Assembly: GCA_040878225.1 (NCBI GenBank) | Contig: JBBDMR010000165.1 | Location: 1 to 48,005 of the forward strand | Source of the DNA: Acidimicrobiia bacterium | GTDB lineage: Bacteria; Actinomycetota; Acidimicrobiia; Spongiisociales; ZC4RG35 | Length of the DNA: 48,005 bases | Reading direction: 5' to 3' | Part shown: positions 12,783-40,433 of the stretch, piece after piece | Layout: each line of letters opens with the position of its first letter | Position numbering within the stretch: the stretch's first letter is position 1 | Notes under the pieces: model-generated | Told to the model about the DNA's origin: nothing | The model's input: the letters and a program-made list of their open reading frames with translations, nothing else | Databases searched by the model: none | Made by a program: the position numbers and the translations under genes

Positions 12783-14273
12783 TTGACCGAAGCAAACGAA
12801 CCACCAGACGCCCTGCAGGCGACGCGCCAGGAGCACCACCAGGAGATCCTCGCCGGAGCAGGCTATCCGACAAGATTCGTGCGCTCAGCTTGGGCATCCG
12901 ACCTCCACGAGAAGTTCCAAGGGCTCGAGCCCGGGACCCACACCGAAGAGCAGGTAGCCGTTGCAGGACGGGTGATGCTGCACCGCTCTTTTGGCAAGCT
13001 CCAGTTCGCCACCATCAGGGACATGACCGGGACCATCCAACTGTTCGTCGACCGCGGCCACATCGGAGACGACCTCGCCGCCGAGTTCGGGCGGCTCGAC
13101 CTCGGCGACTGGGTGGGGGCATCGGGAACTGTGATGACCACGAGGAAGGGCGAGCTCAGCGTACAAGTCGATGAGTTCGTCATCCTTCAGAAGAGCCTGC
13201 GGCCGCTTCCGGACAAGTTTCATGGACTCCAGGACGTCGAACAGCGGAGCCGGCGGCGGTACCTCGACCTGATGGTCAATGACGATGCATTCGAAACCGC
13301 CATGACCCGGGCCCGGGTGCTGTCCGAACTGCGAAGAGAGTTCGAGAACCGCGGCTTCATCGAAGTGGAGACGCCGGTGCTGCTCTCCCAGGCGACGGGT
13401 GCGAATGCGAGGCCATTCGCCACCCGGCATGAGGCGCTTGATATGGAGATGTTCCTCCGAATCGCAACGGAGCTGCATCTGAAACGGCTGGTCATAGGAG
13501 GCATCGAGCGGGTGTTCGAGATCGGGAGGATCTTCAGGAACGAAGGCATCGATGCCACCCACAATCCCGAGTTCACCATGCTCGAGGCCTATCAGGCCCT
13601 TGCCGACTACAACGACATCATGGTGTTGGTCGAGGATGTCGTCTCCTCGGTGGCGGTCAAGGTGACCGGGTCGGAGACGATCACCTATCGCGACCGCGAG
13701 TTGTCGCTGTCCGCCCCGTTCCGTCGGGCGACGCTCGTCGACCTGGTGTCGGAGGTGGTGGGAGAGCCCGTCGACCTCGACACCCCGGTCGGGCGCCTCA
13801 TCGAAATCGCCGGAGAGAAAGGTGTGCCCCTCGAATCGGATTGGACACCGGGACGGGTCCTCCTCGAGCTCTACGAAGAGTTGGTCGAGCCGACCATCTG
13901 GGAGCCGACGTTCGTAACCCACCAGCCGGTGGAGGTCTCACCGCTTTCACGGCGGAACCAAAACGACCCCCGGCTCGCCGACCGCTTCGAGCTGGTCATC
14001 GCAGGCTCCGAATACGCAAATGCTTTCAGCGAGCTCAACGACGCCGACGACCAGCTGAGCCGGTTCGAGGCACAGGCCCGCGCCCGACTCGCCGGCGACG
14101 ATGAGGCCCACCCGGTCGACACCGACTACATAGAAGCCCTCGAATACGGCCTGCCCCCAACCGGCGGCCTGGGTATCGGAGTCGATCGCCTGGTGATGCT
14201 CCTGACCAATCAAACCCACATCAGAGAGGTAATCCTCTTCCCCACAATGCGAGCTGTTCCCCCAGAGACCTAG
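12783..14273 (+). CDS. lysS: Lysine--tRNA ligase (class II)
   Basis: OB-fold N-terminal domain, class II motifs ('FRNEGID..HNPEFTMLE', 'GLGIGVDRLVMLL'). The last ~7 codons lie inside repeat copy A. Confidence 0.95.
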   Translation: MTEANEPPDALQATRQEHHQEILAGAGYPTRFVRSAWASDLHEKFQGLEPGTHTEEQVAVAGRVMLHRSFGKLQFATIRDMTGTIQLFVDRGHIGDDLAAEFGRLDLGDWVGASGTVMTTRKGELSVQVDEFVILQKSLRPLPDKFHGLQDVEQRSRRRYLDLMVNDDAFETAMTRARVLSELRREFENRGFIEVETPVLLSQATGANARPFATRHEALDMEMFLRIATELHLKRLVIGGIERVFEIGRIFRNEGIDATHNPEFTMLEAYQALADYNDIMVLVEDVVSSVAVKVTGSETITYRDRELSLSAPFRRATLVDLVSEVVGEPVDLDTPVGRLIEIAGEKGVPLESDWTPGRVLLELYEELVEPTIWEPTFVTHQPVEVSPLSRRNQNDPRLADRFELVIAGSEYANAFSELNDADDQLSRFEAQARARLAGDDEAHPVDTDYIEALEYGLPPTGGLGIGVDRLVMLLTNQTHIREVILFPTMRAVPPET

Positions 14274-33035: not shown

Positions 33036-33111
33036 GCCGGGTTAGCTCAGTTGGTAGAGCAGCTGATTTGTAATCAGCAGGTCATCGGTTCAAATCCGGT
33101 ACCCGGCTCCA
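33036..33111 (+). tRNA. tRNA-Thr (anticodon UGU), CCA encoded
   Basis: Hand-folded cloverleaf: acceptor GCCGGGT/ACCCGGC, D-arm GCTC/GAGC, anticodon stem GCTGA/TCAGC with loop TT-TGT-AA, T-arm ATCGG-TTCAAAT-CCGGT. Confidence 0.92.
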
Positions 33112-33490
33112 GCACATGCAGGGAGTTTGTGGCCACTACCAGGGAAAATAGCTTCACCGTCATCCCTGACCTCTCTCAACGCCTAGCGTCGTTTCGCACC
33201 ATTTTTGGGCGTCTCGTGGCCTCGGTGTGGCCCAGATGTGGCCCAGCCACGTGTCTTTTGAGAGCTGTGTTGTACCGTCGCTGGCCAAAGGCAGCGGGAT
33301 TTCTAGGCGGACCTTTTCGACGAGAGCTTTCGTTGGGCAGCCTGTTTCGCGGTGCCGATCAGGCTGAGTTCGTCTCTCGGTTGAGGGGTCTTGCCGCTGA
33401 TCGGGTGCTGCTGATTCCTGTCGATGTGGGAAGCGGTCGGCGATGGCGGACGGTCTCAGATGTGGGCGACTCCGCCCTCGACAGGCGGGT

Positions 33491-33751
33491 TCATACGTCT
33501 AGCGTGACCTCCGAGAACGGCAGTTCGGGTTCTCCATGCGCGACGAGAGCACCGTTCCAAGTCTTAATCCAACGCTGACCCCAAGTATCGACAAAGGTGA
33601 GGTCAACGTCAGGCTGTCCCGTTTCGGGCATCCCGACGGGCCACTCGAAGTTGTACGACCGGTGGCTCTCAGGAAAGAGCGTTCCCACTGAGGCTCTGGT
33701 CGTCAGGTCATCAGGCGATCCAGCGTTACTTCCCATCGATCGGACGACCAA
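33491..33751 (-). CDS. Hypothetical protein (islet); possibly the 3' part of a frameshifted gene
   Basis: 86-aa ORF with no recognisable motif. Overlaps the ORF 33726-34007 in a frame offset by one nucleotide. Confidence 0.3.
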   Translation of the reverse strand: MVVRSMGSNAGSPDDLTTRASVGTLFPESHRSYNFEWPVGMPETGQPDVDLTFVDTWGQRWIKTWNGALVAHGEPELPFSEVTLDV

Positions 33752-34007
33752 ACTGATCCGCCAGGAACCGAATAGGCGAGCAATATGCCGCTATGCGCTC
33801 TTCAGCAGTCGGATCGTTATCCAGCGAGATCTGGTGATCTGCGCTGCCAAGGCCCAGGGTGGTGGCGGCCTGGGATGTGGTCGGCCCGTTCGGGTCGGGT
33901 GAGGAAGCGTGGTGTACGACGCAAGTGGTTTCGGTGCCAAACCCGGCCACCCCACGCTCCCGGCGCCAGACTCTCCCTGGTGGATTCACTCGCTCCCTAT
34001 GGAGCAA
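33726..34007 (-). CDS. Hypothetical protein (islet); possibly the 5' part of a frameshifted gene
   Basis: 93-aa ORF with a TTG start and no clear RBS. Confidence 0.25.
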   Translation of the reverse strand: MLHRERVNPPGRVWRRERGVAGFGTETTCVVHHASSPDPNGPTTSQAATTLGLGSADHQISLDNDPTAEERIAAYCSPIRFLADQFGRPIDGK

Positions 34008-34200
34008 GCCCTCGTGTTAGGGATCGGACGCCGCAGTCACGGGTTGTGGCACCGCACGAAAACGGAGTTGCAGGAGTATTACGACGCCGCGCGTAGCGGC
34101 GGGGCGTTCGGTTAGGCAGGCCGGGGGTTTTCTTCTATGGGTTGGCCCTTTAGCGCGCGATCTGAGGCGACCTCAGCGATGTGAGGGGAACAGTGTGGAG

Positions 34201-34452
34201 TTACGTGTTTGAGCGAAGTGGTCCGTTGCCCTCCCCTAACCGCTGCAAGTGGCGTATAGCAAACGGAGGCTGCGGAGCCCTCTCTCGAAAACCGTCAATG
34301 GGAATCGGCATCCATCCGCCACCGCTCTCTTCCTGCCCCTCTAGCGCCTCGATCGCATGGTCTCGGCACACGGATCCCGCTGGTGTGATGAAGGAGGCCT
34401 GCCCGTCGCATAAGCGGCAGGCAATCCGACTAAACGTCCGAGTGAATGGCAT
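34201..34452 (-). CDS. Hypothetical small Cys-rich protein (islet)
   Basis: 83 aa, with 'CRLCDG...x13...CRDH' suggesting a small zinc-binding knuckle. No obvious SD sequence. Confidence 0.35.
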   Translation of the reverse strand: MPFTRTFSRIACRLCDGQASFITPAGSVCRDHAIEALEGQEESGGGWMPIPIDGFRERAPQPPFAIRHLQRLGEGNGPLRSNT

Positions 34453-34598
34453 GCAGTCAGTTTTGCTGGCCGACCTAGCTTGTCGCCTACTAAATCACAG
34501 GCACAGGTTTGCACTAGTCACCGGACAAGCCAGGGGTTCAGCCTGGTAGTCTCGGTCCCGTCCGCGGCGTCACATTCACAAGGCCACCCTGGACGCAA

Positions 34599-34655
34599 AA
34601 GAACCCCCGGTAGACCGTCCAAGCATCTCGCAAGGCAGGGCCGACCGGGGTTCTT
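34599..34655 (-). terminator. Long stem-loop downstream of the DUF3892-like gene
   Basis: Arms 'aagaacccc(c)gg' and 'ccggggttctt' give 11 bp with one bulge. On the - strand the stem runs into 'cttttgcg'. Confidence 0.5.
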
Positions 34656-34665
34656 CTATTGACGG

Positions 34666-34917
34666 TTAACAGTCAGGGAGATTGTCGAGGTTATTAGCCT
34701 TCGTTGAGTCCCCTTCGGTCTGCAAGTGACCGTCGCTGGTCAAGTATACGTCTGTCTTGTAGCCGCCCTCGTTGACATAGTAAGAGTGGGTACCATTCTT
34801 AATGTCGCTGATTGCCTCCGCCTTCAACCGTGGGGACCAGGACTCCCCAGAGTTGCAAAGGGATGTGATATCTCCGTCGTCGTCTTTGCCCGTTCGTCGC
34901 ACCCTGCGATCAGCCAT
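34666..34917 (-). CDS. DUF3892-like small protein
   Basis: 83 aa. GGAGGG lies 6 nt upstream of the ATG. 'ITSLCNSGESWSPRLKAEAISDIKNGTHSYYV ... NNLDNLPDC' resembles the DUF3892 pattern as I recall it. Confidence 0.7.
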   Translation of the reverse strand: MADRRVRRTGKDDDGDITSLCNSGESWSPRLKAEAISDIKNGTHSYYVNEGGYKTDVYLTSDGHLQTEGDSTKANNLDNLPDC

Positions 34918-35053
34918 GATGGACCCTCCTCGGTCGCTTCATGCCAACCCTACGCGTATCCCCGCCGAGGATGCGTGGCCCTGGGGAAAGAACATCGGTG
35001 TAGGGTTCTCCAGGTCCAGCGCCAACCTCCCCCACCCTACGGCCCTGGACGCG

Positions 35054-35107
35054 GAAGACCCCCCGGTCGGCGTGCCCATTTGCAGCTTGCCGGCCCGAGG
35101 GGTCTTC
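35054..35107. terminator. Stem-loop downstream of the two-gene operon, related in sequence to 34599-34655
   Basis: Arms 'gaagacccc' and 'ggggtcttc' (9 bp) with a ~36-nt interior. A T-rich run ('tttgttt') follows only on the + strand. Confidence 0.4.
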
Positions 35108-35117
35108 TTTGTTTCGG

Positions 35118-35417
35118 CTATCCGCGCCAGCCGACCCAACGACCCCCAATCTCGTGTTGAATCATTTGGAGCAGGAAGCGGATTGCGGAACCTGTCGACT
35201 CTTCTGATGATTCGTCGTCGTCCGGGTCGCCCCAGTGGTCGAGGAGCCCGTACCGAAGTTCGAGCAGGTCCTTCTCGTCCAGCCGTTTCAGGATTCCACT
35301 CCACGTAACCCCGGCATCCTCCTCATAGGCTGAGGCGTCCAACTCGACCAGGCCGTGGTCGAGCATGTCCGTTTTGTTGTGGTCGTCCAGAGGGACGGGA
35401 ATCATCGAAGCCGTCAT
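35118..35417 (-). CDS. Small strongly acidic hypothetical protein (islet, second gene of the pair)
   Basis: 99 aa. By my count it has 22 Asp/Glu versus 8 Lys/Arg, including 'GDPDDDESSEES'. GAGGAG lies upstream, and the start overlaps the upstream stop (ATGA). Confidence 0.6.
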   Translation of the reverse strand: MTASMIPVPLDDHNKTDMLDHGLVELDASAYEEDAGVTWSGILKRLDEKDLLELRYGLLDHWGDPDDDESSEESTGSAIRFLLQMIQHEIGGRWVGWRG

Positions 35418-35713
35418 ACTCGCTCCTCTTCGGGCTCGAGTGTGGCGGCCGCGTTGAGCATGAGCGCCCGGGCGAACCCGGCGGCGATGTGCTGCCCGTC
35501 GTCTCGGCGCATGTGCTTCGGAACGTTCACCTGGAAGCCGTCCATCACGGAGGCCACCACGGCGACCGTGTTCTCATAGCCCAGCTCCTCATAGGAGCGC
35601 GCGTAGTGGTACAGCTCTTTGCCGATGTCCCGTAGCCGGTTCTCGTCGCTGATAGCGTCCCAGTCGATGGAGTCGATCTCCTGCCGGATTTGCTCTTCGG
35701 TTTTCGTGGTCAT
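35414..35713 (-). CDS. Small hypothetical protein (islet, first gene of the pair)
   Basis: 99 aa. GGAGGG lies 7 nt upstream of the ATG. No recognisable domain. Confidence 0.65.
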   Translation of the reverse strand: MTTKTEEQIRQEIDSIDWDAISDENRLRDIGKELYHYARSYEELGYENTVAVVASVMDGFQVNVPKHMRRDDGQHIAAGFARALMLNAAATLEPEEERV

Positions 35714-35806
35714 TTCTTACCCTCCTAGAGAGTGGATGACTTTGCCGTTTGGCTGGTTCGTGACCAGGGCTTTCACCCTGGTAGCACACCGTTTTCCCCG
35801 TCATAC

Positions 35807-35850
35807 TTTGTTATCAGCAGGTCATCGGTTCAAATCCGGTACCCGGCTCC
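35807..35850 (+). repeat. Displaced tRNA-Thr 3' fragment (att-like direct repeat)
   Basis: 'tttgtTatcagcaggtcatcggttcaaatccggtacccggctcc' versus 33067-33110 'tttgtAatcag...'. Identity is 43/44. Confidence 0.9.
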
Positions 35851-35937
35851 TAGAGACATCTCAGTAAGGCCAGGTGAGCCGGGGGGTTTCTGTGTAGGGG
35901 CCTCCCGTCCGGGTCGGATCGCATACGTTCCGGACTG

Positions 35938-35990
35938 GTAAGAACCCCCGGACCCCATTCCCCCAAAAATTCGGGGGTTCTTACTTTTGT
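35938..35990 (+). terminator. Intrinsic-terminator-like hairpin following the displaced tRNA 3' fragment
   Basis: 12-bp stem 'gtaagaaccccc'/'gggggttcttac' followed by 'ttttgt', with a C-rich 23-nt loop. Consistent with the original tRNA-Thr terminator. Confidence 0.6.
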
Positions 35991-36228
35991 AAACGCCGCC
36001 TGGAGCGGTTAAGACACTCCCACCGCCCACATCGTGAAAAAAAGGGGCACACCCGCGCGTGCTGGGGCAACATCGTCGAGTGAGAGCGACATGGTGGGTA
36101 AATGCCTCCCCGCGGCGAAACCCCCCGAAAGACCACCCGCCGAACAGCTCAGTTGGGCCGGCCAGTCGTTGTTTGGTACCCGCACGCCATACTGCGCTGC
36201 TCCGTGCCAGATATTTCGGTGGAGCGAG

Positions 36229-36291
36229 TCAGAACAGCAAGTTGAGCAGCACCGTCAATACCACGGAAACGATCACCGATATGAGCACCAT
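36229..36291 (-). CDS. Candidate 20-aa hydrophobic peptide MVLISVIVSVVLTVLLNLLF
   Basis: Below the ORF-track cutoff. This frame has G/C at the third position in 16 of 20 codons. The overlapping 50-codon frame has mostly A/T third positions. The SD is weak. Confidence 0.3.
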   Translation of the reverse strand: MVLISVIVSVVLTVLLNLLF

Positions 36292-36352
36292 TGTCAGGCA
36301 TCCCCGGCCGCCCCCGAGGGGCCGGATCGTCATTCGCTTCTGGTTCAACTGT

Positions 36353-36701
36353 CTATGCCCTTGAGTTGGCGATGGCGAGTCCCATGAATACGCCGACTAC
36401 GAAGCCGGCAGCGCCAGCAACGACCGAGGACGCCCAGGCCAGCGATGCTGGCTGCACCGACGGCCGCTCCACCTTGGCGAACAGGTAAAGCCCGAAGATT
36501 TCCAGGATTGTCAGCAAAGGAGCTCCCGCTTTTATCCTTGTAGGCATCGAGATGGTGTTTCACTAACGGAAACGTGAAAAGGTCCAGTTCGCCTCGCACA
36601 TCGATCACCCAAGTGGATGGTTCTTCGGTCACTGCGACGACGAGAGGAGGAGGGTCGTAACCGGATAGGCCACCCCCTAATTCGGAAGTGGTGAAGGTCA
36701 T
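36353..36701 (-). pseudogene. Small membrane-protein gene interrupted by a frame change at an A4 run
   Basis: Strong RBS (AAGGAGAGG) and ATG at 36701 open frame A. Hydrophobic, high-GC3 coding continues only in the frame shifted by one nucleotide (track ORF 36353-36547, two TM segments). The frames can be joined at 'gataaaagc' (36530-36533). Confidence 0.4.
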
Positions 36702-36919
36702 GTCCTGGCCTCTCCTTAGATGGTAAGAGTACGCCGGGGTCTAGGGCAGAAGTGCGGGTTGCGCTTGTCCACCACTATACACCGGCGCATCCGCTCCACG
36801 GAAAAACGGGAAAATTAGCTCTAACTGCTCGCCTCTGCGAAGAAGAACACTCCGCCGTTCTCGTGGCGACAGATCGGATTAACACCCGGCTGAGTATATG
36901 GATACGCCGGGCAGCCTCT

Positions 36920-37050
36920 ATCATCGACTCGCAACGCCGAGCCCGGTCAATAAGCCGGGACGGGGAACCCAAATTTGGGGCGTATCCCGGTCAAATGGCC
37001 GGGTAGAGCACCTTCCAGCTCGAGCCCGTCAGCTAACCCCGTAGGCCTGA
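36920..37050 (+). promoter_or_regulatory. ydaO/kimA-type c-di-AMP riboswitch-like leader
   Basis: 'ACGGGGAACCCA' (36960-71), 'GGGGCGUAUC' (36977-86) and 'CCCGUCAGCUAACCCCGUAGGCC' (37025-47) match my recollection of the ydaO consensus (GGGGAnCCCA ... GGGGUGAAUC ... CCGnCAGCUAACCUCGUAAGC). Two near-identical hairpins, CCCGG-N8-CCGGG (36942-59 and 36986-37003), give pseudo-twofold symmetry. It ends at the SD (GAGGAAGGG) of the antiporter gene. Confidence 0.7.
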
Positions 37051-37065
37051 GGAAGGGATGGTTCA

Positions 37066-39162
37066 ATGGAACCTTTTGCTGGAATAGCCCACGAGGACCT
37101 GCTCAAACTCGTCCTGTCAGTGGCGCTACTCCTCGGCGCTGCCCGACTGCTCGGCGGCCTCATGGAACGATTCAAACAGCCTGCCGTCATCGGGGAGATC
37201 ATGGCCGGGGTCATTCTCGGCCCGTCGGTACTTGGAGGGATATTTCCTGCTTTCGGGCGGCTGGTAGTGCCCCAGACCCTGATCCAATCGCAGTTGCTCG
37301 ACGTGGTCGCCCTGATCGGTGTGATGACACTGATCCTGATGGTCGGGATGGAGACAGACCTGGGACTGATCCGGGCCAGGCTGAAGAGCGCCACGGCCGT
37401 CGGGCTGGGAGGGCTGCTCATCCCTTTTGCCTTCGGGCTGGCGCTGGGTAATTGGCTCCCTGACTCACTGTTGGGTTCGGCGTCGAACCGGGCTGCGTTC
37501 AATATGTTCCTCGCCGTGGCTCTCGCACTTTCGGCGATACCGGTCCTCGCAAAGATCCTCTCCGATCTCCGTCTCTTGCGCAGCGAGTTCGGCCAGACCG
37601 CACTTGCCGCCGGAATGATCGACGACGTGCTCGGCTGGACCCTCCTCGGCCTGGTCACCTCGCTGGCGACTGCCGGTGCCGTGACGTTGGGAGACTTCGC
37701 CTCCACGCTCGGTGCCGTGATCGTGTTCATCGCGCTCACCGTCCTCATCATCGGGCCCGCTACCCGGTGGAGCCTCGACCTGGTCCTCGACCGGGTGCAG
37801 ATCAGGGACCGGGTCCTCACCCTCGTGATCGTCTTCGCCTTCGGCTGGGGTGCGTTCACCCAGGCGCTCCATCTCGAGCCGATCCTCGGGGCGTTCGCGG
37901 TCGGGATGATGTTCGGTCGGCTGCGCCGCCTTCCCGTGGAGACCGGGCGCCAACTGGAAAGTCTCACTTATGGGATCTTCGCTCCCATCTTCCTGGCTAC
38001 TGCCGGGCTCCGGCTCGACATCGGCGTTCTCTTCGAGGGCAGTCTGCTCTGGATCACCGGCGCAATGCTGGCCACGGCTGCTGCCGGGAAACTGATCGGC
38101 TCGTACCTGGGCGCAAGGCTTCTCGGAGGGATCGGGAACCGTCATGCCTGGGCGTACGGGGTTGCCCTGAACGCCAGAGGAGTGCTCGGGGTGATCGTTG
38201 CCAGCATCGGGCTCTCGATGGGCATCTTCGGAGTCGAGCTCTACACAATGCTGGTTGTCGTGTCGCTTGCAACCTCGGTGATGGCTCCTATCGGGCTCCG
38301 CTACCTGATGAAGGATGAGGTCGAGGCCACCGTGAGCGGAGAACCCGCTCTTGCCCTGAACCGAATTCTCGCCCCGGTCCGTCTGCGCGAGGACGGGTCG
38401 ACGCGCTCGTTCGATCCCGCCATCCTGGGAAGTCTCCGGGGCGAATCGCCCGGCGTGACTCTGATGACCGTAGTGAGCCCGGAGGAACGCAAGACCGCCG
38501 GGCAGTACCTATCCGACCTGGCGGACCGGATTCCTGAAGGGCTCGAGGTGACGAAACGGGTGGCGACAGGAGATCCGGTCGAAGCCATCGTCAGGGAGGC
38601 TGAGACAGGGTATGACATGGTCGTGCTGGGCGCACCTGACCCCAAGGCTGGGCCCGACTACCTGTTCGAAGCCACTCTCGACGAGATTGTCCGGTTGGTT
38701 TCTTGCCCGAGCATGATCTTCTCATCGCGGGGCAGCCAATGGCCTCCCCGGCGGATCATGGTCCCCACAGGTGGTGCCGATGCTGCCTCCCGTGCGGCCG
38801 ATCTGGCGTTCGCGCTGAGTGATGAACACAGCCAGGTCCTCTTGTTCCACTCCATCGACCCGGAATCAGCAACCGAAATGGCGATGTCGCTGCAAACCAC
38901 GCCGGCCTCGCGGCTCGAAGTCGGCCACGGCGTGGTCAGCGCCCTCCGGGCCGTTGGCGAAAGGATGGGAGTGTCTGTGGCCACCGAGGTTGTGATGGGA
39001 TCGGGTGTGGTCGATTCGATACTCGAAAGAGCAGCACAGGACATCGACCTGCTCATCATCGGAACGAATGTCAGAGCCGGCTCGCATCGTCTCTACCTGG
39101 GCTCGAAGGTAGAACGGCTGCTCGTCGAGGCTCCGTGCTCGACGATCGTCTTCAACGTCTGA
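37066..39162 (+). CDS. Cation:proton antiporter (CPA2 family) fused to two C-terminal universal-stress-protein domains
   Basis: N-terminal 'QPAVIGEIMAGVILGPSVLG' and ~12 TM segments. The C-terminal ~280 aa contains two USP-like halves ('VTKRVATGDPVEAIVREAETGYDMVVLGA' and 'ATEVVMGSGVVDSILERAAQDIDLLIIGT'). Confidence 0.88.
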   Translation: MEPFAGIAHEDLLKLVLSVALLLGAARLLGGLMERFKQPAVIGEIMAGVILGPSVLGGIFPAFGRLVVPQTLIQSQLLDVVALIGVMTLILMVGMETDLGLIRARLKSATAVGLGGLLIPFAFGLALGNWLPDSLLGSASNRAAFNMFLAVALALSAIPVLAKILSDLRLLRSEFGQTALAAGMIDDVLGWTLLGLVTSLATAGAVTLGDFASTLGAVIVFIALTVLIIGPATRWSLDLVLDRVQIRDRVLTLVIVFAFGWGAFTQALHLEPILGAFAVGMMFGRLRRLPVETGRQLESLTYGIFAPIFLATAGLRLDIGVLFEGSLLWITGAMLATAAAGKLIGSYLGARLLGGIGNRHAWAYGVALNARGVLGVIVASIGLSMGIFGVELYTMLVVVSLATSVMAPIGLRYLMKDEVEATVSGEPALALNRILAPVRLREDGSTRSFDPAILGSLRGESPGVTLMTVVSPEERKTAGQYLSDLADRIPEGLEVTKRVATGDPVEAIVREAETGYDMVVLGAPDPKAGPDYLFEATLDEIVRLVSCPSMIFSSRGSQWPPRRIMVPTGGADAASRAADLAFALSDEHSQVLLFHSIDPESATEMAMSLQTTPASRLEVGHGVVSALRAVGERMGVSVATEVVMGSGVVDSILERAAQDIDLLIIGTNVRAGSHRLYLGSKVERLLVEAPCSTIVFNV

Positions 39163-39245
39163 CCGCTACTTTGCCGGTGCCTCCGCCGGCTGCGGCATGG
39201 GATCCGGCTCGGCTGGGGCCGGCACGGGAATTTCGGGCTCGACCT

Positions 39246-40040
39246 CTATAACTCGTTGGGGCTTTCCAATATCCATCCTGTCTGTTTCCTTTCTTGCTCT
39301 TTCATGTAGGCGGCCATGTTGTCCTCAAACCGACCGTTCACCGATCGGTCTGGCTCTCCATTCAGGTGCCATTCGTCCGAAAGCCCGATCCCCTGGAAGA
39401 GAATCTCGATCTCTTCTGGGTCTTCGGTGGCAAAAATTCTCCCGCGCCTGACGAACGTGAGAGCGAGGACGGTGACACGTTTCGCCCGCCAACCTTGCTC
39501 GTGCTCCACCACTTTCCCTGTCATGGCGACCAGGCCGATCGCCATCGACCCGACGCCGGCGTGAGAGGAGATGAGCCGGTCGACATCCTTCGCTGCATAG
39601 ATGCCACACGGTGGGTCGGCACATTGGCCGTCGGTGTGGGGGACGTCCTCGTTGGTGACACCCCCGGCGCAGATTGCAGACAGAGTGCGGTGCTCCCAGC
39701 GGACCCTGTAGCCGTGGAATTGGCCGTTCTTCATCTCCCACATCCGGAAGCCCAGCATCGGCACCGGTGACCAGGACGGGCCATGCTCGCTCTCTATCTG
39801 CCTGATTACATCGCTCAGGAAGAAGCGGATGGTCTTGTCCAGCCCGCTGACCTCGACATCGAGGGCATCGACTTCGGCCTGGATGACGGCAAGCCGGGCT
39901 CGTAGGTCCCGGAGTCGCGCGTGTTTGCGGCGCAAAGTGAGGAGCAGGCGATCGAGGCTGGGCGGGGAGCCGGAAATCCTGTATTTGAGGCGCAGCCGTT
40001 CCCATTCACGATTCAACCGGTGAACGCTGATGTCGGACAT
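39246..40040 (-). CDS. Hypothetical protein: N-terminal coiled coil plus C-terminal Cys/His domain; candidate SOS-regulated gene
   Basis: 264 aa. 'RLRDLRARLAVIQAEVDALDVEVSGLDKTI' is followed by 'GFRMWEM..GYRVRWE..AICAGGVTNEDVPHTDGQCADPPCGIYAAKD' (C-x10-H-x4-C-x4-C). I could not assign a family. Confidence 0.75.
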   Translation of the reverse strand: MSDISVHRLNREWERLRLKYRISGSPPSLDRLLLTLRRKHARLRDLRARLAVIQAEVDALDVEVSGLDKTIRFFLSDVIRQIESEHGPSWSPVPMLGFRMWEMKNGQFHGYRVRWEHRTLSAICAGGVTNEDVPHTDGQCADPPCGIYAAKDVDRLISSHAGVGSMAIGLVAMTGKVVEHEQGWRAKRVTVLALTFVRRGRIFATEDPEEIEILFQGIGLSDEWHLNGEPDRSVNGRFEDNMAAYMKEQERKQTGWILESPNEL

Positions 40041-40064
40041 CGTCCCGACAACCTAGCGGGCGGG

Positions 40065-40080
40065 TCGAACAAATGTTCGA
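40065..40080. promoter_or_regulatory. LexA (SOS) box, TCGAAC-AAAT-GTTCGA
   Basis: Perfect match to the actinobacterial/mycobacterial SOS-box consensus TCGAAC-N4-GTTCGA. It lies 24 nt upstream of the 39246-40040 start codon and 98 nt upstream of the DUF3263 gene. Confidence 0.8.
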
Positions 40081-40178
40081 TCAATCCACAGCCAGGTTTT
40101 CGCGATCTCTGCCGAGAGTCGCCCCAGAGGCGCCGGTGGCCGGCCCTGACAAACCAGGCTAAATGCACCGGTAAGAAC

Positions 40179-40433
40179 ATGACTGTAAATACGCTGGATT
40201 CGATGCTCGACGACATGGACAGGGCTGTCCTCGACTACGAGAGGGGATGGTCCAATCAATCAGGTCCCAAGGACCGGTCAATCGAGATGGACCTCGGGCT
40301 TACCGCCGGGGCTTACTACGCGCGTCTCAGAAGGCTGATTTCCGATAGCCGGGCCACCACCTATGATCCATTGACAGTGCTGCGACTCCGGCGAATTATC
40401 GATCCTCCGGACCCGGCAGAGGCGGTTGGGTGA
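40179..40433 (+). CDS. DUF3263-like small protein
   Basis: 'AVLDYERGWSNQSGPKDRSIEMDLGLTAGAYYARLRRLISDSRATTYDPLTVLRLRR' fits the DUF3263 pattern as I recall it. ATG at 40179. The upstream part of the track ORF is antisense to the neighbouring gene. Confidence 0.72.
   Translation: MTVNTLDSMLDDMDRAVLDYERGWSNQSGPKDRSIEMDLGLTAGAYYARLRRLISDSRATTYDPLTVLRLRRIIDPPDPAEAVG

Follow-up and report, generated by a model that had tools for sequence, protein, structure and literature searches.

A putative LexA-operated gene of the Acidimicrobiia encoding a coiled-coil protein with a β domain related to phage and mobile-element proteins

The DNA analyzed here, hereafter the window, comprises 48,005 nucleotides (nt), positions 1–48,005 of contig JBBDMR010000165.1 of an Acidimicrobiia bacterium (GenBank assembly GCA_040878225.1). 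A gene on its minus strand, at 39246–40040, encodes a 264-residue protein of an uncharacterized family. Upstream of this gene lies a 16-nt palindrome, TCGAACAAATGTTCGA, at 40065–40080, which reads as an SOS box, i.e., an operator of the repressor LexA. A divergent gene of the DUF3263 family starts at 40179 and is followed by genes encoding a LytR_C protein, a membrane protein and an AI-2E transporter. The features of the gene, its product and its promoter region are listed in Table 1.

The LexA box and its conservation

Re-reading of the window sequence showed that TCGAACAAATGTTCGA is a perfect palindrome that matches the operator tCGAAC-N4-GTTCGa at 12 of 12 positions and is separated from the ATG of the 264-residue gene (40040–40038, minus strand) by exactly 24 nt (40041–40064). 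A zero-mismatch search located it once in the 48,005 nt and in none of 100 dinucleotide-preserving shuffles; chance does not account for the box. The runner-up site, at 13504, carries one mismatch and falls within a long open reading frame (ORF). The LexA motif of Streptomyces venezuelae, defined by chromatin immunoprecipitation sequencing and surface plasmon resonance, is tCGAAC-N4-GNNCGa (PMC9380542), with which the box agrees. Three claims of the preliminary description of this DNA are thereby borne out, namely that the box matches the actinobacterial SOS consensus, that it is the single full match in the window (a claim made by eye) and that it stands 24 nt before the ATG. The assignment of the palindrome as a genuine LexA operator is well supported, with regulation by LexA predicted in silico. 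When up to two mismatches to the 16-mer are allowed, the window contains 13 matches compared with 3.5 in the shuffles; all but the one at 40065 apparently lie within long ORFs, and the excess is probably an effect of codon usage or base composition.

A profile-guided scan using one genome per species yielded 61 loci comprising 452 kb, which are referred to by L numbers. Fifty-five of them, all from uncultured Acidimicrobiia or Actinomycetota genomes, encode proteins of the coiled-coil type, and the other six, all from Terriglobia, encode the β domain only. A box with no more than one core mismatch is located just upstream of the homolog in 48 of the 53 loci with usable upstream sequence; the core is perfect in 37 of these and deviates at one position in the other 11 (L009, L010, L019, L021, L034, L037, L039, L041, L042, L044 and L045). 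The question raised in the preliminary description, whether orthologs retain the box, is thus answered in the affirmative for most of the family. The boxed loci span roughly 30–89% protein identity, and the sequence flanking the conserved box diverges between loci. Among the five loci that lack the box (L016, L029, L050, L052 and L053) are second or third family copies whose genomes have a boxed copy as well.

The perfect CGAAC-N4-GTTCG sequence (10-nt core) occurs 49 times in the 452 kb, compared with ~ 0.4 occurrences expected for a uniform base composition. Thirty-nine of the 49 are immediately upstream of a homolog and one is upstream of the second family copy in L053. The remaining nine are in L020, L025 and L060, with one box each before lexA and two each before a LysM gene, and no perfect core was found elsewhere in the 452 kb, outside the family and the lexA/LysM promoters. 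The boxes that precede lexA (L025, position 4863; L020, position 7212; L060, position 5290) occur in loci that all carry the family gene as well. Judging from these sequence comparisons, the gene family probably belongs to the SOS regulon of the Acidimicrobiia and is conserved in it across the class. Literature searches found no published description of an SOS or LexA regulon in this class.

Several loci exhibit additional arrangements. In L025 (3865–5513), L020 (4869–7858) and L060 (4280–5932), nrdR is followed by a gene for a small LysM membrane protein, preceded by two tandem LexA boxes, and by a divergent lexA with one box; the family gene is located just upstream of this cluster. The order of nrdR, the LysM gene and lexA in L025 and L020 resembles the mycobacterial nrdR-chiZ-lexA arrangement. 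L009 (3956–3986) and L010 (3946–3976) have two overlapping LexA-like boxes (GCGAACACATGTTCCC and CCGAACGTATGTTCTC) directly before the ATG, the second of which contains a −10-like TATGTT. In several metagenome-assembled genomes, paralogs occur at two or three copies (L037/L048/L050; L039/L046; L042/L044; L038/L052; and L053 at 2470 and 4001). Most copies possess their own LexA box, and L050 and L052 have neither the box nor the CGCGAAA element described below.

Alignment of 44 upstream regions on the box yielded the consensus cgcgaaa, ~ 18 nt, TTgCGAACat.TGTTCGAt, 4–5 nt, TAnnnT, 7–9 nt, ATG. TAnnnT stands 5–9 nt past the box and is seen across 43 loci. In most loci, the left arm of the box shares bases with a −35-like TTGCGA and the right arm is followed by the −10 hexamer, such that the operator overlaps or abuts the predicted core promoter, with the box across the −35/spacer region. 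The expectation of the preliminary description that bound LexA would overlap the promoter of the gene is therefore upheld at the sequence level by the conserved TAnnnT and TTGCGA around the box. The aligned upstream regions contain no Shine-Dalgarno sequence. Because the −10 hexamer is so close to the ATG, the mRNA of the minus-strand gene is probably leaderless or nearly so, with a predicted transcription start adjacent to the start codon. In the clade of the window, the distance between box and ATG stays at 22–24 nt despite changing neighboring genes; because the box keeps its fixed place before the homolog while the neighbors differ, the operator is assigned to the 264-residue gene. A PafBC-type, RecA-independent promoter was considered at a TTTGTCAGG-like stretch near 40150 and was rejected since the geometry is wrong and the stretch belongs to the DUF3263 side.

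In 28 of the 43 loci aligned on the box, a second element, CGCGAAA, precedes the start of the box by 20–30 nt (about 27 nt); four loci with degenerate boxes (L009, L010, L021 and L042) have it as well. Some loci contain two copies 23 nt apart or a copy together with an inverted TTTTCGCG. The lexA and LysM promoters lack the element, and elsewhere its frequency is that expected by chance. It may be an UP-like element or a site for activation or autoregulation. Its interpretation as the −35 region of an extracytoplasmic function (ECF)-type promoter was dropped because the spacing does not fit.

Table 1 Features of the 264-residue gene, its product and its upstream region (window coordinates).
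Feature	Position	Strand	Basis
Protein-coding gene, 264 residues, uncharacterized Acidimicrobiia family	39246..40040	-	ORF, homologs, substitution pattern
Predicted LexA operator (SOS box), TCGAACAAATGTTCGA	40065..40080	.	Unique in window; kept in 48/53 loci; lexA promoters; S. venezuelae motif
Putative −10 hexamer TAGGTT (TAnnnT), 9 nt before ATG	40050..40055	-	Cross-species alignment on box
Second conserved element CGCGAAAA (TTTTCGCG on + strand)	40097..40104	-	Box-aligned loci
Basic N-terminal segment, residues 1–50, isoelectric point 11.9	39891..40040	-	Family mean net charge +4.6; RR-x-AR patch conserved
Single long helix, residues 27–86, predicted coiled coil	39783..39962	-	AlphaFold2 predicted local distance difference test (pLDDT) 89–98; profile matches coiled-coil PDB entries only
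All-β globular domain, residues 87–216	39393..39782	-	Domain-only model; phage and mobile-element relatives
Cys124-x10-His135-x4-Cys140-x4-Cys145, putative structural zinc site	39606..39671	-	All four invariant in 33 sequences
Hairpin motif GKVVEHExG(Y/W)R, residues 175–185	39486..39518	-	Invariant G175, K176, V177, V178, E179, H180, G183, R185
C-terminal helix, residues 238–259, invariant Trp256, after disordered acidic linker	39264..39329	-	AlphaFold2 model

The encoded protein and the relatives of its β domain

A word-seeded search identified 52 close relatives of the 264-residue protein with 30–98% sequence identity, and a profile search of 1.84 billion cluster representatives identified 415 relatives at E ≤ 1e-10. 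The search with the β domain only yielded 1569 relatives. The relatives from these searches are all unnamed or labeled hypothetical, apart from a few mis-named YajC. Nucleotide differences from close orthologs are distributed over the three codon positions as 13/13/57 and 24/16/72. The gene is real, because homologs exist and the differences fall mainly at third codon positions, a substitution pattern consistent with purifying selection. Comparison of the full protein with Pfam, NCBIfam, PHROGs and PADLOC yielded nothing above threshold, only sub-threshold coiled-coil noise. Sequence searches of the Protein Data Bank (PDB) with the protein and two profiles returned only coiled-coil entries or nothing, and a Pfam scan of ten longer family members revealed no informative domain fusions.

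The AlphaFold2 model of the full protein (pLDDT 84.8) comprises a short helix, a long helix (residues 27–86), a β domain (residues 95–205) that ends in a helix (residues 208–215), a linker, and a final helix (residues 238–259). The long helix is a predicted coiled coil and would mediate association into a dimer or a higher oligomer. The C-terminal helix attains a pLDDT of 96 for residues 241–250, and the linker falls below 50 for residues 227–234. The invariant residues, counted over 33 sequences, are W90, S91, P92, G97, R99, W101, G110, W115, C124, P134, H135, C140, C145, G146, Y148 and A149, followed by G175, K176, V177, V178, E179, H180, G183, R185 and W256. The Cys-His-Cys-Cys cluster among them is probably a zinc site. 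When the Terriglobia proteins are added, the first cysteine, the histidine and Cys145 stay invariant; there, as in the Streptomyces phage BRock, C-x-C replaces the Cys140/Cys145 pair. The GKVVEHExG(Y/W)R motif, which reads GKVVEHEQGWR in the re-translated window protein, forms the tip of a long β-hairpin in both the full and the domain-only models.

The preliminary description had noted an N-terminal heptad-like coiled coil, a C-x10-H-x4-C-x4-C segment and a product with no nameable domain. The first is seen as the helix spanning residues 27–86 of the model, the second was recovered upon re-translation and consists of residues that are invariant in the 33 sequences, and the third stands in that no characterized family was identified by sequence, profile or fold searches. 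Both models of the protein, full-length and domain-only, are confident.

The β domain modeled alone exhibits a pLDDT of 88.1 and a predicted template modeling score of 0.84. Foldseek searches of the PDB with the full and the domain-only models gave best E values of 0.08–0.11, such that no solved structure in the PDB resembles the domain; the best match of the domain-only model has an E value of 0.11 and a probability of 0.10. Hcp and split-barrel proteins, which appeared among the PDB matches, were rejected at probabilities of ≤ 0.1. A search of the predicted viral structures in BFVD identified a protein of an uncultured Caudovirales virus (E value 5e-7), and Foldseek aligned the domain with A0A1J0GW93 of phage BRock (E value 1e-5, root-mean-square deviation 3.1 over 116 columns). 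The profile alignment with BRock gp216 using hhalign yields a probability of 96.9% and an E value of 1.5e-10, and tblastn yields an E value of 1e-3. BRock gp216 shares the β domain with its motifs G(F/Y)(R/K)xW, C...H...CxCGIYA and GK(I/V)V...G(F/Y)RA. However, it lacks the N-terminal coiled coil and the E179-H180 pair, which is replaced by M-G, differs in its C-terminal half and bears no annotation. The features kept into the phage homolog are only K176, R185, R/K99, aromatic residues and the metal ligands. PHROGs matched neither BRock gp216 nor a Terriglobia homolog.

A weaker fold match is to DUF7666, an uncharacterized domain of phages and giant viruses, with a Foldseek probability of 0.98–0.99 and an E value of about 1e-2 over ~ 100 columns. 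However, the DUF7666 Pfam model matches neither the full protein nor 24 domain sequences at E values up to 10, and the Pfam scan of these 24 sequences at the same cutoff returned nothing at all. Literature searches found no description of DUF7666. The stand-alone domain of the Terriglobia (Acidobacteriota) has both the GKVVEHExG(W/Y)RA motif and the Cys/His site, but the coiled coil and the LexA box are missing, and an additional C-terminal domain is present. Their genes (L055–L059, L061 and L063–L066) follow an overlapping 45-residue ORF (MQIGEP.RTIVVEPLE...) and are situated within islands that include resolvase, GIY-YIG, HipA and DruA genes. Readings of the CGIYA and GKVVEHE motifs as GIY-YIG, ASCH/PUA or papain-like were rejected, as the order of secondary structure elements and the fold searches do not fit.

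Since actinophage and mobile-island proteins contain the β domain too, its acquisition from these elements, or exchange with them, is probable. The Acidimicrobiia form itself is a resident chromosomal gene and not evidently a prophage gene, because the window gene lies in conserved housekeeping synteny (in L062, one side carries radA, disA, carD, ispF and cysS) and a scan of IMG/VR viral contigs for the β domain gave no confirmed relative.

Proposed function and competing explanations

The favored interpretation, to which a probability of about 0.8 is assigned, is that the window encodes a LexA-operated single gene, probably transcribed as a leaderless mRNA, whose product is a coiled-coil/β-domain SOS protein with a domain shared with phages and mobile elements. 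In the undamaged cell, a LexA dimer bound at the box would keep RNA polymerase off the promoter. Upon DNA damage, RecA-stimulated self-cleavage of LexA would free the promoter and the 264-residue protein would be made. Both repression by LexA and derepression after cleavage are predicted from the sequence and from comparison between loci. Its perfect match to the consensus suggests high affinity, so that the protein may be held tightly off until damage is severe. The β domain, probably once a phage or mobile-element module, would now serve in a chromosomal SOS gene of the Acidimicrobiia.

As to what the protein does, a tentative proposal is that it acts as a binding-type effector and not as an enzyme. 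Its basic N-terminus, together with a conserved Lys/Arg/aromatic face of the β domain, would most likely contact nucleic acid or the nucleoid. The proposal derives from the residues conserved as far as the phage protein, which are metal ligands, Lys/Arg and aromatic residues and not a catalytic set. A more elaborate and rather doubtful extension is that the protein is a core SOS effector specific to the Acidimicrobiia, built on a mobile-element zinc β fold, and that its promoter integrates LexA with a CGCGAAA-binding factor, possibly the protein itself.

Several observations weigh against these interpretations. In the clade of the window, 9 nt separate the box from the −10 hexamer, compared with 5–6 nt elsewhere, which makes the −35 overlap less clear-cut. 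A scan of 39100–40300 for E. coli-type promoters and terminators found nothing, although such a miss of the promoter is expected for a high-GC (guanine-cytosine) actinobacterium. All 61 loci are from metagenome-assembled genomes, and the scan identified no cultured carrier. With respect to the function, not all family members have a basic N-terminus, neither Pfam nor the Foldseek PDB search gave a fold or family match to a DNA-binding or other characterized protein, and the E179-H180 pair, invariant in Acidimicrobiia and Terriglobia, would also fit catalysis.

A possible, though not probable, alternative is that the protein is an SOS-induced inhibitor of growth or the cell cycle, or a toxin-like effector of phage derivation, that binds a division or replication protein and not nucleic acid. 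In E. coli, perfect-consensus LexA operators typically guard late or harmful functions, and the operator of the 264-residue gene is of this kind. The family is also lineage-specific, as SOS checkpoint proteins usually are, its domain is common to phage and mobile-island proteins, and the gene is found in the lexA neighborhood in three loci. However, in those same three loci the slot of YneA/ChiZ, divergent from lexA, is filled by the separate double-box LysM membrane protein. The 264-residue protein itself bears no LysM or other known domain and no similarity to any known inhibitor, and its model, a coiled-coil helix plus a globular domain, is not a membrane layout (no dedicated transmembrane prediction was run).

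An enzymatic role of the β domain, such as that of a metal-dependent nuclease or hydrolase processing damaged DNA by means of E179-H180 and the Cys/His site, is unlikely. The two residues are invariant in Acidimicrobiia and Terriglobia and are positioned at the end of a β-strand, followed by a hairpin and a helix, with the Cys/His metal site nearby. Nonetheless, M-G replaces E-H in the phage BRock homolog, the four Cys/His ligands are in a loop as is typical of a structural zinc site, and Pfam matched no nuclease family, HNH and His-Me included, nor did the PDB fold search, in which no E value was below 0.08, match a nuclease fold.

The second promoter element bears on another explanation, that the product is a regulator in the style of basic-leucine zipper (bZIP) proteins, with a basic region and a zipper, that binds CGCGAAA for autoregulation or to control a second tier of the damage response. 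The element is specific to the promoter of the family, is conserved in the class, forms direct repeats 23 nt apart or inverted pairs in some loci, and is missing from the other SOS promoters seen, and the basic N-terminus of the protein runs straight into the coiled coil. This reasoning derives purely from co-occurrence, and CGCGAAA could be an A-tract of the UP type or be bound by some unrelated factor. In addition, the basic character varies within the family as mentioned above, no bZIP signature is present and the matches to GCN4 are generic coiled-coil matches. Such a regulator is quite unlikely.

The suggestion of the preliminary description that the box instead, or also, controls the divergent operon that starts at 40179 was not supported. 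The divergent genes share a 138-nt intergenic region, and the arrangement recurs in L001–L003 and L005. However, 98 nt lie between the end of the box and the ATG of the DUF3263 gene, and a conserved promoter-like stretch of the DUF3263 gene adjoins its start, far from the box. A UPF0014 gene intervenes between the box and the operon in L004 and L062. The DUF3263/LytR_C/membrane/AI-2E neighbors are limited to the five closest loci (L001–L005); the operon is absent from most other loci, some of which (L020 and L025) have an upstream gene in the same orientation as the homolog, yet the distance between box and homolog is fixed and the box stays with the 264-residue gene. Control of the operon by the box is accordingly unlikely, and repression of the operon as the principal or an added role of the box is very improbable.

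Finally, it is hardly credible that the palindrome is fortuitous or bound by a regulator other than LexA: although the assignment of LexA in Acidimicrobiia is sequence-based, no shuffled sequence reproduced the site, the same core precedes lexA in three genomes of the class, the site coincides exactly with the actinobacterial LexA site established by experiment, and the box is conserved across 48 loci.

Other features of the window and comparison with known SOS systems

Two further regions of the window were noted. A cyclic di-AMP (c-di-AMP) riboswitch (Rfam RF00379, 81 bits) is found at 36925–37062 on the plus strand, directly upstream of a gene (37066–39162) for a Na+/H+ exchanger fused to universal-stress-protein domains; such an exchanger gene is a typical target of the c-di-AMP riboswitch class. 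A tRNA-Thr(TGT) gene at 33036–33111 is followed by ~ 3.8 kb (to 36900) containing only short ORFs, in which the GC content is 0.57–0.62 compared with 0.64–0.67 on either side. The region (33036–36900) may be the remnant of an integrated element.

To our knowledge, SOS regulons have been described in detail for only a few cultured lineages. The Acidimicrobiia are abundant in soil, freshwater and marine settings and are mostly uncultured. With the operator retained in ~ 90% of species-level genomes over deep divergence, the family is a good candidate for a core role in the damage response of the class. The β domain has neither a family name nor a solved structure, and literature searches found no paper on the domain. 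Elucidation of its activity would annotate more than 1000 hypothetical proteins, and might show by what route a module of phages or mobile elements entered a host stress response. Should the protein prove to be a minor accessory one, the locus would still be a clean case of the recovery of a regulon member by phylogenetic footprinting. If the dual input of LexA and CGCGAAA and the captured fold are correct, the locus would represent a branch of the bacterial response to DNA damage that was not known before.

The division inhibitors induced by the SOS response, SulA, YneA, ChiZ (Rv2719c), DivS and SidA, are lineage-specific and LexA-repressed, as is predicted for the present family, and often have strong operators. 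The likeness would be one of role and not of sequence, and the family gene is within a few kb of lexA in three loci. The family differs from the YneA/ChiZ type in that it has no LysM domain; a separate LysM protein is encoded divergently from lexA in L020 and L025. As to bZIP-type DNA-binding proteins, residues 1–50 of the 264-residue protein are basic and the helix of residues 27–86 is continuous; its matches to GCN4 are only those of a generic coiled coil, and it has no signature motif. The LexA regulons of Mycobacterium tuberculosis, Corynebacterium glutamicum and S. venezuelae, like the system described here, employ a 16-bp TCGAAC-N4-GTTCGA palindrome that overlaps the promoter, and they too include lineage-specific genes of unknown function. 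In contrast, the family is not found in these three species; all 55 loci of the coiled-coil type are from uncultured Acidimicrobiia or Actinomycetota. The regulatory logic is that of a classical SOS switch.

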